The translations under genes and the position numbers were made by a program. Positions 12,052 to 59,663 of a DNA stretch of 64,000 nt are shown here, in pieces. Source of the stretch: Escherichia phage Phi1. The notes below the pieces were generated by a model. That model searched no databases. It was given only the letters and a program-made list of their open reading frames with translations, and was not told the DNA's origin. The stretch lies in sequence record EF437941; one strand, written 5' to 3'. How positions within the stretch are numbered: the first letter of the stretch is position 1; every line of letters begins with the position of its first letter.

Positions 12052-12077
12052 AGCCGTCCTTGTGGGCGGCTTTTTTG
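12052..12077 (+). terminator. rho-independent terminator after the methyltransferase
   Basis: Hairpin AGCCGTCC-loop-GGGCGGCT followed by TTTTTT. Confidence 0.6.
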
Positions 12078-34764: not shown

Positions 34765-34916
34765 AATATTTCCTCCATAGAAAGCAATATCATACTACAA
34801 GTTAATAACAAATACAAGTATCCGCGTAGCGGAAGCGAGCACAGCGAGCAATAAAACACTTCCAGTAATTGATTAATAAATGTTCGAAACAAATTTTTAT
34901 TATTCTATAAGATAAG

Positions 34917-34942
34917 TCTTCGTTTTGATCATAATTTAATCA
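34917..34942. repeat. 26-bp direct repeat, copy A
   Basis: TCTTCGTTTTGATCATAATTTAATCA; identical copy 149 bp away in an ORF-free region. Confidence 0.8.
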
Positions 34943-35065
34943 TACATGTAAAAACTACACAAAAGGATATCGCTTCGCGAACTCCTACGGAGTATAACAT
35001 TTGTGTTACAATATGTAGTGATTAATAATTAACCAAAGATACATTTTCTATGTTCTAAAGATCTT

Positions 35066-35091
35066 TCTTCGTTTTGATCATAATTTAATCA
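35066..35091. repeat. 26-bp direct repeat, copy B
   Basis: Identical to copy A; on the + strand copy B reads TTGATC, 17 bp, TATTAA (promoter-like). Confidence 0.8.
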
Positions 35092-35143
35092 AACAGTATT
35101 AATATTGTGCACATGTAAACTAAAATTATGTTAATAACAGATA

Positions 35144-35169
35144 CAAAAAAGCCGCCCCAAAGGACGGCT
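35144..35169 (-). terminator. rho-independent terminator (- strand) after the 145-aa gene
   Basis: On the - strand: AGCCGTCC-TTTG-GGGCGGCT followed by TTTTTT. Confidence 0.65.
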
Positions 35170-35177
35170 AATGTTAA

Positions 35178-35615
35178 TTATTTGTTGATAACGATCTGAT
35201 TTCGGCGAATGGTAACATTACTCTTAGAGATGATCAGATCATCCGGCACTACGTTAGTTTTGTATGGTTGGAAGCGAACAAGCATCTGATTGCGTTTAGA
35301 CCCTTCCTTAATCTTGATTTCCATCTGGATATTGTTGCCTACGTGAGCAACCGCAATTTCACCTTTATTCTCATAGACCCACTTGCTGGTAACGTCTCCA
35401 GCAAAAGCCTTAATAACTTGCAATGCTTCGTCGTATGCGGTAGAGCTGTGAACTTTCAGAAGGCCAGCCGTAGCAAGACGTGAGCAGGTGATCGCCGGAG
35501 ATTGCCAAACATCAACATTAATTTGCTCAATCAGAGTAACACCGCCCTGATCAACTGCTTTAAATGCTTCGAACATTGCCTTTTTCATTGCTACGTGGTT
35601 TTTACGGAATTTCAT
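35178..35615 (-). CDS. hypothetical protein (145 aa)
   Basis: ATG with RBS GAGGTGA; no recognised motif. Confidence 0.55.
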   Translation of the reverse strand: MKFRKNHVAMKKAMFEAFKAVDQGGVTLIEQINVDVWQSPAITCSRLATAGLLKVHSSTAYDEALQVIKAFAGDVTSKWVYENKGEIAVAHVGNNIQMEIKIKEGSKRNQMLVRFQPYKTNVVPDDLIISKSNVTIRRNQIVINK

Positions 35616-35661: not shown

Positions 35662-35937
35662 TCAGGACATTGCCCGTTTGAATGCGTCCATTATAACAGT
35701 GTTATTTGGCTTGTCAACACGTTTTTGAACTTTATTTTTAAATTTTTTGTTGATGTGGTGTTTACGATAAACAACCTTTTCACGGTTGGCGTAAGCCTCG
35801 CGTGCGTCTTTTACCATCAACCATGCCTTAGCCGCATCTTGTCCGCTGATCCCGCCAATCTTCTTAGCAATATCAACAAAATTAAGACCGTGGTCTTCGC
35901 GTAGCATGTAAACCATTAACGCTGTTTTCTTGTCCAT
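35662..35937 (-). CDS. putative helix-turn-helix DNA-binding protein (91 aa)
   Basis: Internal ATG of the 127-aa track ORF that overlaps the stop of the upstream membrane-protein ORF; HTH-like segment ALMVYMLREDHGLNFVDIAKKIGGISGQDAAKAW. Confidence 0.4.
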   Translation of the reverse strand: MDKKTALMVYMLREDHGLNFVDIAKKIGGISGQDAAKAWLMVKDAREAYANREKVVYRKHHINKKFKNKVQKRVDKPNNTVIMDAFKRAMS

Positions 35938-36134
35938 CACTTCGCCCCATTGACGATTAACAGGATAGTGATCAGCACCGGAAACTGGATCATGATAGTG
36001 CCAATAAACCGGATAAATGCATTTTCTGACTTCCACACATGACATGCGACTAGCTGATAGACCATCGTTGAAACCAGAACTAGGATATAAACCGAAAGCG
36101 GTGTAACTTCGATTAGTCGGGAAATCTCATTCAT
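35937..36134 (-). CDS. small membrane protein (65 aa, two predicted TM helices)
   Basis: ATG with RBS GAGGTGA; two hydrophobic stretches; stop overlaps the start of the next ORF. Confidence 0.45.
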   Translation of the reverse strand: MNEISRLIEVTPLSVYILVLVSTMVYQLVACHVWKSENAFIRFIGTIMIQFPVLITILLIVNGAK

Positions 36135-36261
36135 ACTTCACCTCATACATTCATAAACACAACAACGAATAATACAGTAACAGTTATCAACGCCATTTTC
36201 AACCCCATATTCATAATATTTTCTTCGCCTCACTATGGACAATAGCATGTCGATGCGTGCC

Positions 36262-36289
36262 ATTATAGGCATCTAAATCGCTCTGTCAA
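36262..36289 (-). promoter_or_regulatory. consensus sigma70 promoter (- strand)
   Basis: On the - strand: TTGACA, 16 bp, TATAAT; drives the membrane-protein/HTH pair through a roughly 120-nt leader. Confidence 0.6.
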
Positions 36290-36293
36290 GCAC

Positions 36294-36324
36294 AAAAACA
36301 AAAAAGCCACCCCGAAGGATGGCT
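36294..36324 (-). terminator. rho-independent terminator (- strand) after hoc
   Basis: On the - strand: AGCCATCC-TTCG-GGGTGGCT followed by TTTTTTGTTTTT. Confidence 0.65.
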
Positions 36325-36335
36325 GATAGATTTCA

Positions 36336-37550
36336 TTAAGCAGGATGCGTTTCACGAATGCGTAGAACTCGCTCTAACGTCTCTCGGTCCAGTTTATGTA
36401 ACTCTTTGGAATGATACATGAAACCATTGCGAGATTCCATGCAAGTGCAATCACTATATTTTTCTTCCGCTGCCGCGATTGTCTCCAGATCTTTGGCGTA
36501 CTTGCTGGTTGAATAAACTTCTCGATCACGCCACTCTAACCCAGCCTCATTGAATTTAACAATCTCGTCAAATACCCACCATCCAATGTAGATAAATGAA
36601 GTTTTGCGCCACGGGATCGGGTGTACGTAACGAAACATTTTAACAACTTCCATTGAACATTTTCGGCTTGTACTTGCTGCAACTTCTACTGTTTCATCTT
36701 CGATCTGTTGATATAGTTTAGCAACACACCAGAATTTGGCTGTGTCATCGTAAGTAACACTCTCTTTGAACAGATGACCGTCTGGCATGATAGAAAATCC
36801 TTCCAGTGCTTCGCCGACCTCACTACCGATTAGAGTCGGTGACGGTTGCCCTTCGCGCTGCAAATACCAGTTATATTTGATCGTCAAATTAGGCATACCG
36901 CTAGAATCGCCTACAATGTCCTCTGACACAACATAATTAAGTGATATCTCATTACCTAGTGCCACGGTCTTTGATTCCACCACATCCTGATCTACGTTCA
37001 TTGTTGCCAGCATGATTTTAGTCGATGCGCTAGCGGCTGAATCTTCCGACTCACCCCACACTTTTACAGTATACAAGCCGTTTTTATCTGCTGTAAATTC
37101 TCGGATTGTAATATCCTGTTTTGTGTCTATAACGTCTTCGCCCTTACTCCAACTATAATGTAGTTCATAGTCGTCTGCTGGAGTCTTCCCACCAGAAAAT
37201 TTTACTGTTGCATGTAATTCTACGTCTTTTTGTGATGATACGTAAAAATGCTGCGGTTCGGTGATATTTACGATTAATTCAGCTTCTTCCATGAGGAAAA
37301 CTTCAGATTCTACTGATTCCGTCGTATCGGTATCTTGTACCGTTACTTTATAGCTACCCGCATTTTCACTTGTTGCGTCTGCTACAGTTAGCGTAGCTGT
37401 GTTATTTTCATGCGGTTGGTCGTCTTTTGTCCATGTATATGTCAAATTGCTGGGTAATGGTTCGTCACCCGCTACAGTCGCCGTTAAGGTGAAACCATCT
37501 CCAGCAAGAAAACATCTTTTGTTAGATTGTATTGATACTGTGAAAGCCAT
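36336..37550 (-). CDS. hoc: highly immunogenic outer capsid protein Hoc (Ig-like domains)
   Basis: 404 aa; C-terminal YVHPIPWRKTSFIYIGWWVFDEI...ESRNGFMYH closely resembles the T4 Hoc capsid-binding C-terminus. Confidence 0.8.
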   Translation of the reverse strand: MAFTVSIQSNKRCFLAGDGFTLTATVAGDEPLPSNLTYTWTKDDQPHENNTATLTVADATSENAGSYKVTVQDTDTTESVESEVFLMEEAELIVNITEPQHFYVSSQKDVELHATVKFSGGKTPADDYELHYSWSKGEDVIDTKQDITIREFTADKNGLYTVKVWGESEDSAASASTKIMLATMNVDQDVVESKTVALGNEISLNYVVSEDIVGDSSGMPNLTIKYNWYLQREGQPSPTLIGSEVGEALEGFSIMPDGHLFKESVTYDDTAKFWCVAKLYQQIEDETVEVAASTSRKCSMEVVKMFRYVHPIPWRKTSFIYIGWWVFDEIVKFNEAGLEWRDREVYSTSKYAKDLETIAAAEEKYSDCTCMESRNGFMYHSKELHKLDRETLERVLRIRETHPA

Positions 37551-37890: not shown

Positions 37891-38616
37891 TTACTTGAGT
37901 GTGTGGAATTGGCTATGTTTAGTCTCTCGCACCTTGACAGACCCATCGCGTTTGATATAATAGATCAGTGACTTGAGGGTGTCGTGTACATACGCGTGCG
38001 GGAAACGCTCTGGATACTTCTTCCAATCTGGAGTATTAACGATCCAGTCGAAAATCCACCACGGGCAGGAGTAGTAACCACGACCGCCACCGATCAAACA
38101 AATGGTCGGACGGAAACCAGTAAGATCGCAAAATGAATCAGTGTCATGTGCTGGGGAACGATGTTCTGCTTCGTCAGAGAAAATGTTTGCTACCGGAGAT
38201 TTCACTTTAACTTCCGGTGCTTCTTCAACATCTGACTTAACTTCTTCGACCACTTGTTCAACTGCTGGAGATTCTTCTTTTGTTTCTTCAATGACGATCT
38301 CAGGTTCTTTCATTGCTTCACCCAGAGACGGATCAACTTCGTCAAATACTACTTTATCATCTGCGGTATCTGCTGCCAGAATAAGATCGTTAATACTGGT
38401 TCCTTCTGCCGGAGTTTCTTCTTCCATTTCGGAAGCCAGTTTAGTTAATTCGGTTTCTACGAACTCGATCATGTTCTCTAGCGAGAGCGTCTTTTTGACC
38501 TTTATATCAAATTGTTTTGCGTAGTCCGCTAATTCTGTTTTAGCTGTTTTCTGTGCTTCTTTGTCGTCGGACGCCGCAATAGCGCGGAGTTCTTCGAAAT
38601 ATTCTTTATCAAACAT
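37891..38616 (-). CDS. Inh-like protein (tentative), acidic N-terminal region and Cys-containing C-terminal domain
   Basis: 241 aa; RBS AGGAGA; sits between hoc and uvsW where T4 has inh; identity rests on position only. Confidence 0.4.
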   Translation of the reverse strand: MFDKEYFEELRAIAASDDKEAQKTAKTELADYAKQFDIKVKKTLSLENMIEFVETELTKLASEMEEETPAEGTSINDLILAADTADDKVVFDEVDPSLGEAMKEPEIVIEETKEESPAVEQVVEEVKSDVEEAPEVKVKSPVANIFSDEAEHRSPAHDTDSFCDLTGFRPTICLIGGGRGYYSCPWWIFDWIVNTPDWKKYPERFPHAYVHDTLKSLIYYIKRDGSVKVRETKHSQFHTLK

Positions 38617-59192: not shown

Positions 59193-59264
59193 GATTGATT
59201 CTCCTAGTTCGTTTCGGTATGTGTGTATTATAGGGGATCTCCCGATCCCCTGTCAACAACTTTT
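59193..59264 (-). promoter_or_regulatory. early promoter cassette 10 (GATC palindrome)
   Basis: TTGACA, spacer GGGGATCGGGAGATCCCC, conserved leader. Confidence 0.6.
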
Positions 59265-59576: not shown

Positions 59577-59663
59577 TTTTGATTCTCCGTTTAAGAAAGT
59601 GTGTTTCGTTTTGATGTGTGTATTATAAGGGGATCACCGATCCCCTGTCAACAACTTTTTGAA
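59577..59663 (-). promoter_or_regulatory. early promoter cassette 11 (GATC palindrome)
   Basis: TTGACA, spacer GGGGATCGGTGATCCCC, conserved leader. Confidence 0.6.

Follow-up and report, generated by a model that had tools for sequence, protein, structure and literature searches.

On the minus strand of Escherichia phage Phi1 (sequence record EF437941), directly behind the capsid decoration gene hoc, a sigma70-type promoter precedes a series of small genes, among them a member of the DUF2774 family to which gp24.3 of phage T4 belongs. The locus, positions 35,662 to 36,289, was analysed within a stretch of 64,000 nucleotides (nt), hereafter called the window. The 1.3 kb around the promoter and the open reading frames (ORFs) are 99.5% identical to Escherichia phages MIZ6, MIZ2, and MIZ3, 99.4% identical to GEC-3S and ECD7, and 98.6% identical to RB49; all of the matching records (n=57) are from Krischvirus, that is, RB49-like T4-type myoviruses. 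The gene order in RB49 is inh, hoc, ORF167 (65 amino acids, aa), ORF166 ("gp24.3", 91 aa), ORF165 (145 aa), and ORF164 (DprA-like), all convergent with gene 24. The layout in GEC-3S is the same, with terminators annotated 3' of hoc and 3' of the 145-aa gene. Judged from its sequence, the locus is probably one of the ordinary early units of a coliphage of the RB49-like T4 type, with its genes in the order mini-ORF, 65-aa gene, 91-aa gene, and 145-aa gene. The promoter type, the terminator, both ORFs named in the initial annotation (65 and 91 aa), and the family assignment are already known from public annotation and papers. New here are the resolution of conflicting gene calls, a probable micropeptide, the picture of a variable slot behind the promoter, and fold-level support for a helix-turn-helix (HTH) in the gp24.3 family. 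The features of the locus, listed in the direction of transcription, are as follows.

36336–37550, minus strand: hoc, the head outer capsid (decoration) gene, 404 aa, from the ORF list and annotated as hoc at the homologous position in RB49 and GEC-3S
36299–36324, minus strand: intrinsic terminator of hoc, AGCCATCC-TTCG-GGGTGGCT-TTTTTT, from the terminator scan, with an 8-bp stem, a UUCG loop, and a T-run
36262–36289, minus strand: sigma70-consensus early promoter, TTGACA-16-TATAAT, 12/12 match
36215–36255, minus strand: 5' untranslated region proper, about 40 nt, hypervariable, its 3' end being the Shine-Dalgarno sequence of the mini-ORF
36143–36214, minus strand: predicted mini-ORF of 23 aa, MNMGLKMALITVTVLFVVVFMNV, with a 17-aa core, MALITVTVLFVVVFMNV, from 36196, from the comparative alignment
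35937–36134, minus strand: predicted 65-aa membrane ORFan with two transmembrane (TM) segments (RB49 ORF167, phrog_16558), from hydropathy and substitution counts
35662–35937, minus strand: 91-aa DUF2774 protein, ortholog of T4 gp24.3 (RB49 ORF166)
35690–35717, minus strand: second perfect early promoter, TTGACA-16-(TG)TATAAT, serving the 145-aa gene
35178–35615, minus strand: 145-aa gene (RB49 ORF165, phrog_15652), the final gene of the unit, from the ORF list and the RB49 annotation
35144–35169, minus strand: unit-ending intrinsic terminator, AGCCGTCCTTTGGGGCGGCTTTTTTG, a near-copy of the hoc terminator, annotated in GEC-3S and in Nolan et al. 2006

The promoter had been recognized in the initial annotation as a TTGACA-16-TATAAT element behind the hoc terminator, and this is what is found, with the -35 hexamer at 36289–36284, the -10 hexamer at 36267–36262, and agreement with the consensus at 12/12 positions. 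Perfect promoters of the form TTGACA-N15-19-TATAAT occur six times in the 64-kb window versus 0.19 times expected from shuffled sequence; the six would therefore be phage early promoters rather than chance matches. Comparisons were made on an alignment of 21 sequences (the window, 12 Krischviruses from GenBank, and 8 relatives from metagenomes), to which five were added later (26); scans of IMG/VR and metagenome contigs yielded only few extra relatives. No variation is seen among the 21 relatives in either hexamer or in the length of the 16-nt spacer, several positions of which do differ, and transcription would start at about 36255, some 7 nt past the -10 hexamer. RB49-type phages lack motA and middle promoters and have early and late promoters as their only classes; since motA and middle promoters are missing, sigma70-type promoters are the sole class that precedes late transcription in these phages. 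The assignment to the early class, which the initial annotation had likewise raised as a possibility, is consistent with this, and the unit would be an early one that has a late gene, hoc, as its upstream neighbour. A point against this reading is that the hidden Markov model catalogue of RB49 early promoters by Nolan et al. 2006 omits the promoter at 36289–36262.

How the genes behind the promoter are to be called is a matter on which public records conflict. They give either 65 plus 91 aa, or a single ORF of 124–127 aa, or a 44-, 40-, or 37-aa ORF that starts from within the -10 hexamer (L002, GEC-3S; L004, SSG23; L009, FL15; L010, UPWr_E1; L013, TB34); in SSG23 and FL15, an ORF of 124 or 127 aa is annotated and the 65-aa gene is omitted. 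In the window, the ATG of the 91-aa ORF at 35937 overlaps the stop of the 65-aa ORF, a TGA, by a single base (TGATG, GAAGTGATGG), with GGGG seven nt upstream, and a stop/start overlap of the type TGATG or TAATG is present in all aligned relatives. The initial annotation had described this overlap and had also noted, correctly, that the ORF track merges the 91-aa ORF into one of 127 aa (36045–35662). There is practically no chance that this longer ORF is the true gene and that the 65-aa ORF is unexpressed, although its frame is open in the window and 14/26 relatives and the long form is annotated in the GenBank records of SSG23 and FL15 and in metagenome gene call P0006. The upstream frame is closed by a stop 3–4 codons before the 91-aa ATG in 8 of the 26 sequences, and an ATG is missing in four more. 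Over the region of the 65-aa ORF, the ratio of synonymous to nonsynonymous substitutions is 58:60 in the 65-aa frame versus 18:100 in the frame of the extension and 25:93 in the remaining one, both of which contain stops; the synonymous excess is frame-specific for the 65-aa as well as for the 91-aa ORF. T4 gp24.3 and the homologs of seven other genera begin at the position of the 91-aa ATG, which has a Shine-Dalgarno sequence (GGGG or GAGG) 7 nt before it, and residue 6 of the 91-aa protein is where its alignment with the Pfam model DUF2774 begins. Translation from the upstream start without expression of the 65-aa ORF had been named beforehand as the outcome that would overturn the two-gene reading; the closed frame in relatives and the DUF2774 alignment point in the opposite direction. 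By these comparisons, the 127-aa ORF is artefactual, a consequence of the frame being open upstream of the 91-aa ATG, and the conflict between 127 and 65 plus 91 aa in public Krischvirus records is settled in favour of the latter.

From the predicted transcription start at about 36255 to the ATG of the 65-aa ORF at 36134, the distance is some 121 nt. The leader of about 120 nt in the initial annotation is thus right as to its length; as an empty leader it does not stand, since it holds a conserved 23-aa ORF (36214–36143) with a 17-aa internal version from 36196. Between the -10 hexamer and this mini-ORF, 35/47 columns of the 21-sequence alignment vary, and indels of 7 and 12 nt occur; the next 72 nt, which make up the mini-ORF, are more conserved than the 65-aa gene. 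The mini-ORF is intact in 21/21 sequences, and its substitutions (n=13) are either synonymous (eight, versus 21–26% synonymous expected; P=0.002–0.007) or conservative (five, of the types M/V, M/I, T/I, and G/R). An in-frame deletion of 12 nt in FL15 leaves MNMGLITVTVLFVVVFMNV, which from its third codon onward is the same 17-mer as in the window from M7. A Shine-Dalgarno sequence is placed ahead of the first ATG in most lineages (GAGG-N8) and ahead of M7 in the window (GGGG-N6), and the TGA stop of the mini-ORF falls within the Shine-Dalgarno sequence (GAGGTG) of the 65-aa ORF. When the window is compared with the divergent lineage L044, 8 of the 10 identical residues of the two mini-ORFs are encoded by different codons. 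The remaining consensus promoters of the window have leaders of 34–134 nt which do not contain such an ORF. It is likely, from these comparisons, that a hydrophobic micropeptide is genuinely encoded in the leader, which would add a gene of 17–23 aa, probably for a membrane micropeptide, that most annotations have missed. Several points weigh against it. The coding case consists of 13 substitutions and three divergent lineages, and the start is ambiguous (M1, M3, or M7). In addition, codon positions 1, 2, and 3 of the window and L044 mini-ORFs are identical at 9, 15, and 3 of 17 sites, respectively, but composition alone gives hydrophobic peptides a common T at codon position 2, so that 15/17 overstates homology.

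Two other explanations of the leader have to be considered. In the first, the leader would be a non-coding regulatory RNA, such as an attenuator, a thermosensor, or a riboswitch-like element, and the small ORF would be accidental. The unusual length of the leader relative to those of most other consensus promoters of the window (34–134 nt) and the conservation of its 3' two thirds, which exceeds that of the 65-aa gene, would fit such an element. No match was obtained in Rfam, however, where a permissive threshold returned nothing but sub-threshold small RNA noise on the terminators, and the predicted minimum free energy is no better than that of shuffled sequences (z=+1.09; 173/200 shuffles fold as well or better), so that there is no structure signal. 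The substitutions in the leader are chiefly synonymous in one frame, the in-frame deletion of FL15 keeps the peptide, divergent lineages retain a hydrophobic ORF on different DNA, and the 5' third is hypervariable with indels. A non-coding role is, on this evidence, very remote.

In the second explanation, the mini-ORF would be a regulatory leader ORF only, the translation of which delivers ribosomes to the next start or unmasks it, with a functionless peptide as the product. The arrangement of the genes is compatible with this: the stop of the mini-ORF is at most about 10 nt away from the next start in three lineages and overlaps the next Shine-Dalgarno sequence in two of them (window, GTATGAGGTGAAGTATG; L029, ATGAGGTAAACTATG), while in L044 its TGA is followed by GAGACAAAGCATG; moreover, the entire unit consists of overlapping or abutting cistrons. 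It is set against a conservation that acts at the amino acid level and leaves third codon positions free, and against the hydrophobic character and TM length that are kept in all lineages, which coupling alone would not need. In L048 and L049, furthermore, the micro-ORF lies about 80–90 nt away from the DUF2774 start. A purely regulatory leader ORF is accordingly regarded as rather unlikely.

Longer ORFs that have been annotated over the same stretch were examined and rejected. The 44-aa ORF of GEC-3S (36272–36138) has its ATG within the -10 hexamer, its frame is broken by the 7-nt leader indel, and each of the four substitutions inspected by eye alters the amino acid in that frame. The 37-aa ORFs of SSG23, UPWr_E1, and TB34 share the frame of the mini-ORF and extend it at the N-terminus, again with a start within the -10 hexamer.

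The second gene of the unit, the 65-aa ORF (36134–35937), is preceded by the Shine-Dalgarno sequence GAGGTG. Kyte-Doolittle hydropathy gives two hydrophobic segments at about residues 7–33 and 39–64, with a short polar loop between them. For RB49ORF167c, TM segments at 7–29 and 39–61 were predicted by Nolan et al. 2006, in agreement with these values and with the two-helix membrane protein that the initial annotation had proposed. The protein is confined to the 57 Krischvirus records and accounts for 3 clusters among 1.84 billion representatives. It has no match in Pfam, PHROG 16558 is annotated as function unknown, and a match to a holin, antiholin, or Imm family is not found. Amino acid identity in the same genomes ranges from 80 to 100% for the 65-aa protein versus 95 to 100% for the 91-aa protein. 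From its sequence relationships, the 65-aa protein is a clade-restricted, fast-evolving ORFan and not an obligate partner of the 91-aa protein. Together with the predicted mini-ORF product, it resembles the small hydrophobic early proteins of T4-type phages in its size class (17–65 aa), in having one or two TM segments, in its early promoter, in its location in a plastic region, and in its clade-restricted and fast evolution; it differs from them in that neither its sequence nor its family connects it with a characterised example, and the 17–23-aa ORF differs in being under the usual annotation size.

Between the promoter and the DUF2774 gene, the content changes from lineage to lineage, as summarized below.

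L030: empty; perfect TTGACA-16-TATAAT with a 32-nt leader
L044: the same promoter and one 17-aa ORF, MILVTVAVLLIVVFGNM, followed by the DUF2774 gene
Window clade: 17/23-aa ORF and 65-aa two-TM ORF
L029: 18-aa ORF, MILLPIVVIFVVVLKTMR, and 61-aa two-TM ORF, followed by the DUF2774 gene
L046: 39-aa one-TM ORF and 22-aa ORF
L048: 44-aa ORF and 20-aa ORF (MEELLPLFVIIWIIIILSMG)
L049: 26-aa ORF and 20-aa ORF (MEELLPIYIILFLLIMMSFS)

All of the occupants are hydrophobic. In L029, L046, L048, and L049, the 65-aa membrane ORF is replaced by unrelated hydrophobic micro-ORFs, and the peptides of L044 and L029 are either homologous or analogous to the mini-ORF of the window. To judge from these contigs, the stretch from the promoter to the DUF2774 gene behaves as a variable slot in which lineages keep differing hydrophobic micro-ORFs or none. 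A separate observation concerns L032, a T4-like metagenome contig without hoc, in which inh is followed by small ORFs. There, at 2088–2556, the first 8 nt of the DUF2774 gene are shared with an unrelated two-TM ORF of 63 aa, which makes it a second independent case of a small membrane ORF joined to DUF2774. Homology among the three two-TM proteins that precede DUF2774 genes (window, L029, and L032) was looked for, and none is detectable.

The surroundings of the slot correspond to a type of cassette that was described in RB49 and phi1 by Arbiol et al. 2010 (PMC2839356), where about 50 "PeSL" (promoter-early stem-loop) elements were reported. A PeSL consists of a sigma70-consensus early promoter and a stem-loop terminator with an AT-rich stretch upstream, and the stem-loop may take any of five positions, including one upstream of the -35 hexamer. 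Promoter and terminator activity of PeSLs was demonstrated with reporters, the elements were tied to insertions and deletions of ORFans, and hoc was named among the known genes associated with them (PMC2839356). At the locus described here, the consensus promoter (12/12, invariant in 21 relatives) is accompanied by a stable G/C stem-loop 9 nt upstream of the -35 hexamer, which is the predicted terminator, and by a T/A-rich stretch upstream of that hexamer; the site is intergenic and lies beside ORFans, and the adjoining gene content varies between related genomes. The stem-loop differs from the type in being the conventional hoc terminator instead of a GGGG...CCCC stem between the hexamers. 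Furthermore, the variable ORFs abut the conserved DUF2774 gene, and no second PeSL brackets them downstream. The classical architecture is seen elsewhere in the window, in the promoters at 59227–59256 and 59622–59651 (minus strand), which carry a GGGGATC...GATCCCC stem between -35 and -10. With every defining feature present in its sequence, the hoc terminator together with the adjacent promoter is a predicted PeSL cassette, and the slot behind this conserved promoter, in which tiny hydrophobic ORFs come and go, would be a concrete case of PeSL-associated plasticity.

The hoc terminator follows the stop of hoc at 36336, and its T-run ends 9 nt before the -35 hexamer. It is annotated in GEC-3S and Makalu_003 and was listed as "RB49ORF167c<--hoc" by Nolan et al. 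2006; its stem is preserved in relatives by paired changes, for example GCCATCC/GGGTGGC versus GCCGTCC/GGGCGGC in L044. The two terminators bracket the unit of mini-ORF, 65-, 91-, and 145-aa genes as 44-nt direct repeats (36284–36327 and 35129–35172; 80% identity) that are 1155 bp apart. Such repeats were proposed by Arbiol et al. 2010 (PMC2839356) to be recombination sites at which mini-circles are excised. A third similar stem-loop is located at 12052–12077 on the plus strand.

The 91-aa protein is assigned to DUF2774 (Pfam PF11242) with 101 bits against a gathering threshold of 29.2 (E=4e-29), residues 6–68 aligning with profile positions 3–63, and BLASTP gives 38% identity with T4 gp24.3 (E=6e-12). 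T4 24.2, which had first been suspected as the homolog from tblastn feature lists, was discarded, there being no similarity by BLASTP (E=28). The family comprises about 900 records of T4-type phages. In T4 and in 6/7 other Straboviridae genera or genomes sampled, the first gene behind the hoc terminator is that for DUF2774, and a membrane gene is missing; Morganella phage MP1 differs, with other small genes ahead of the DUF2774 gene. T4 gene 24.3 (gp24.3, 56 aa; PHROG 1566) has in common with the gene described here its position downstream of the hoc terminator, its orientation towards and convergent with gene 24, and its early transcription. The T4 protein differs in lacking 11 residues of helix 3 and the entire C-terminal tail (56 versus 91 aa). 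Its gene begins about 35 nt after the promoter region with no membrane ORFs between, and it is followed by 24.2 and rnlB, versus the 145-aa and DprA-like genes here. In the omics study of Wolfram-Schauerte et al. 2022, T4 24.3 was classed as "early RNA, middle protein"; it follows that transcription of the T4 gene is early and that its product has been observed as a protein. A literature search on DUF2774, gp24.3, and the combination 24.3/24.2/rnlB/hoc returned no papers.

In several Tevenvirinae genera that possess MotA, the sequence upstream of the DUF2774 gene can be read as TGCTTT, resembling a MotA box, in place of the -35 hexamer TTGACA. Between hoc and the DUF2774 gene, L022, L024, L026, L027, and L028, of Tevenvirinae-type genera, contain TTGCTTTT-like sequences about 12–13 nt upstream of a -10-like hexamer, with a resemblance to MotA-dependent middle promoters. 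It seems that the promoter class of this gene has been exchanged, depending on whether the phage possesses MotA.

An AlphaFold2 model of the 91-aa protein, based on 66 family members, has a predicted local distance difference test (pLDDT) score of 85, with values above 95 for the helices at residues 3–16, 20–27, and 32–50; residues 51–79 are of low confidence, and residues 80–90 form a helix. The three helices of residues 3–50 are predicted to adopt an HTH fold which superimposes on region 4 of sigma factors, and the putative HTH that had been proposed in the initial annotation thereby gains support from a predicted fold. The tail of residues 51–79 is basic (net +9) and includes a near-invariant EKVVYRK motif. 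When the family profile was searched against the PDB, region 4 of RpoE was obtained as a marginal match (E=0.014), and the annotators of phage LC53 had independently noted "HHpred: RNA polymerase sigma factor"; a single-sequence search of the PDB returned nothing meaningful, and Foldseek against viral models returned uncharacterised T4-type proteins only. Other results speak against a sigma-region-4-like HTH. The HTH assignment rests on a predicted model, the HTH proteins found with Foldseek in the PDB all have E above 0.3 and none is significant, and the Pfam models for sigma region 4 (Sigma70_r4 and r4_2) do not match, nothing beyond DUF2774 being obtained at E<=1. The putative recognition helix, which is the third one, is not basic, with a net charge of 0 here and a family mean of +1.3. 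In this it is unlike region 4 of sigma70, and the EKVVYRK motif and the basic tail are missing from sigma factors. Compared with a complete sigma factor, regions 2 and 3 are absent, and only the HTH and the basic tail remain; because these regions are missing, the 91-aa protein cannot be a sigma factor, and what the model predicts is an HTH-like domain. We infer from this model that the protein would bind nucleic acid or RNA polymerase. For the widespread and uncharacterised gp24.3 family, the outcome is a testable structural hypothesis, namely a sigma-region-4-like HTH with a basic EKVVYRK motif.

Taking these elements together, the unit would most likely work as follows. Host sigma70 RNA polymerase would fire the promoter at 36289–36262 in the first minutes of infection, and ribosomes would move from cistron to cistron via translational coupling. 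The two small hydrophobic products would be early accessory proteins, specific to the lineage, that enter the inner membrane. The gp24.3-like protein would remain cytoplasmic, where its sigma-region-4-like HTH and its basic tail would bind nucleic acid or RNA polymerase. Transcription of the unit would end at the second, near-identical terminator at 35169–35144.

The initial annotation had gone further and considered the 65-aa product a possible membrane partner of the HTH protein, itself a putative immediate-early regulator. Such a functional pair of the 65-aa protein and the sigma-region-4-like protein would be comparable to a membrane anti-sigma factor, the regulator being tethered at the membrane or released from it. 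The fact that L029 and L032 likewise have a two-TM ORF directly 5' of the DUF2774 gene would be in line with this. Most DUF2774 genes, however, have no membrane neighbour; L030 and L044 do not have this membrane ORF, and the two-TM proteins of the window, L029, and L032 are without detectable mutual similarity. In the 65-aa protein itself, little surface is available for binding, with just about 11, 8, and 3 residues predicted outside the membrane, and the evolutionary rates of the two proteins are very different, that of the 65-aa protein being far faster. The idea of a membrane partner is weakened accordingly and must be rated improbable. A still broader proposal would be that DUF2774/gp24.3 is an early free-standing mimic of sigma region 4 which interferes with or redirects host RNA polymerase, and that in Krischvirus-like phages it is co-translated with hydrophobic micro-proteins of 17–65 aa by which it is held or gated at the membrane. 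The variable slot would in that case be a diversifying regulatory module instead of a set of unrelated accessory ORFs. By competition, such a mimic may be aimed, for example, at the beta-flap, at -35 elements, or at a factor that binds region 4. As a whole, this proposal is highly speculative and has little probability. The reading of the locus as an ordinary early unit with accessory membrane products would come as no surprise to a T4 specialist, and in practice it is useful for annotation and for guiding experiments.

The second perfect promoter, at 35690–35717, lies within the 3' end of the 91-aa gene, in the codons for VDK...VIM of the C-terminal tail, and corresponds to Pe:98401 in the RB49 catalogue of Nolan et al. 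2006. It is conserved in all relatives. The tail itself is a feature of the 91-aa protein only in the Krischvirus-like clade. In L021, a deletion of 1 nt alters the tail of the protein and leaves the promoter DNA intact. Because this frameshift changes the peptide and spares the promoter, the sequence comparison suggests that the promoter rather than the peptide is the constrained element at this position. Orthologs of the 145-aa gene which it serves are located 3' of the DUF2774 gene in every Krischvirus-like contig.

Some further observations relate to the surroundings of the unit. Upstream, another perfect TTGACA-16-TATAAT promoter with a TG extension is found at 37934–37961 on the plus strand, antisense within the 3' end of inh (37891–38616, minus strand). 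It faces uvsW (38673 onward, plus strand) at a distance of about 710 nt, and RB49 and GEC-3S contain an identical 28-mer; on its position, it could give rise to an antisense RNA to a late gene or to a long leader of uvsW. Downstream, an AT-rich gap of about 385 nt (34765–35150), in which there is no convincing ORF and for which Rfam gives no match, separates the terminator of the 145-aa gene from the DprA-like gene. Within it, a direct repeat of 38 nt with 89% identity occurs at 34909–34946 and 35058–35095, and the 17-mer TTGTATNTGTTATTAAC is placed 3' of each of two stem-loops.

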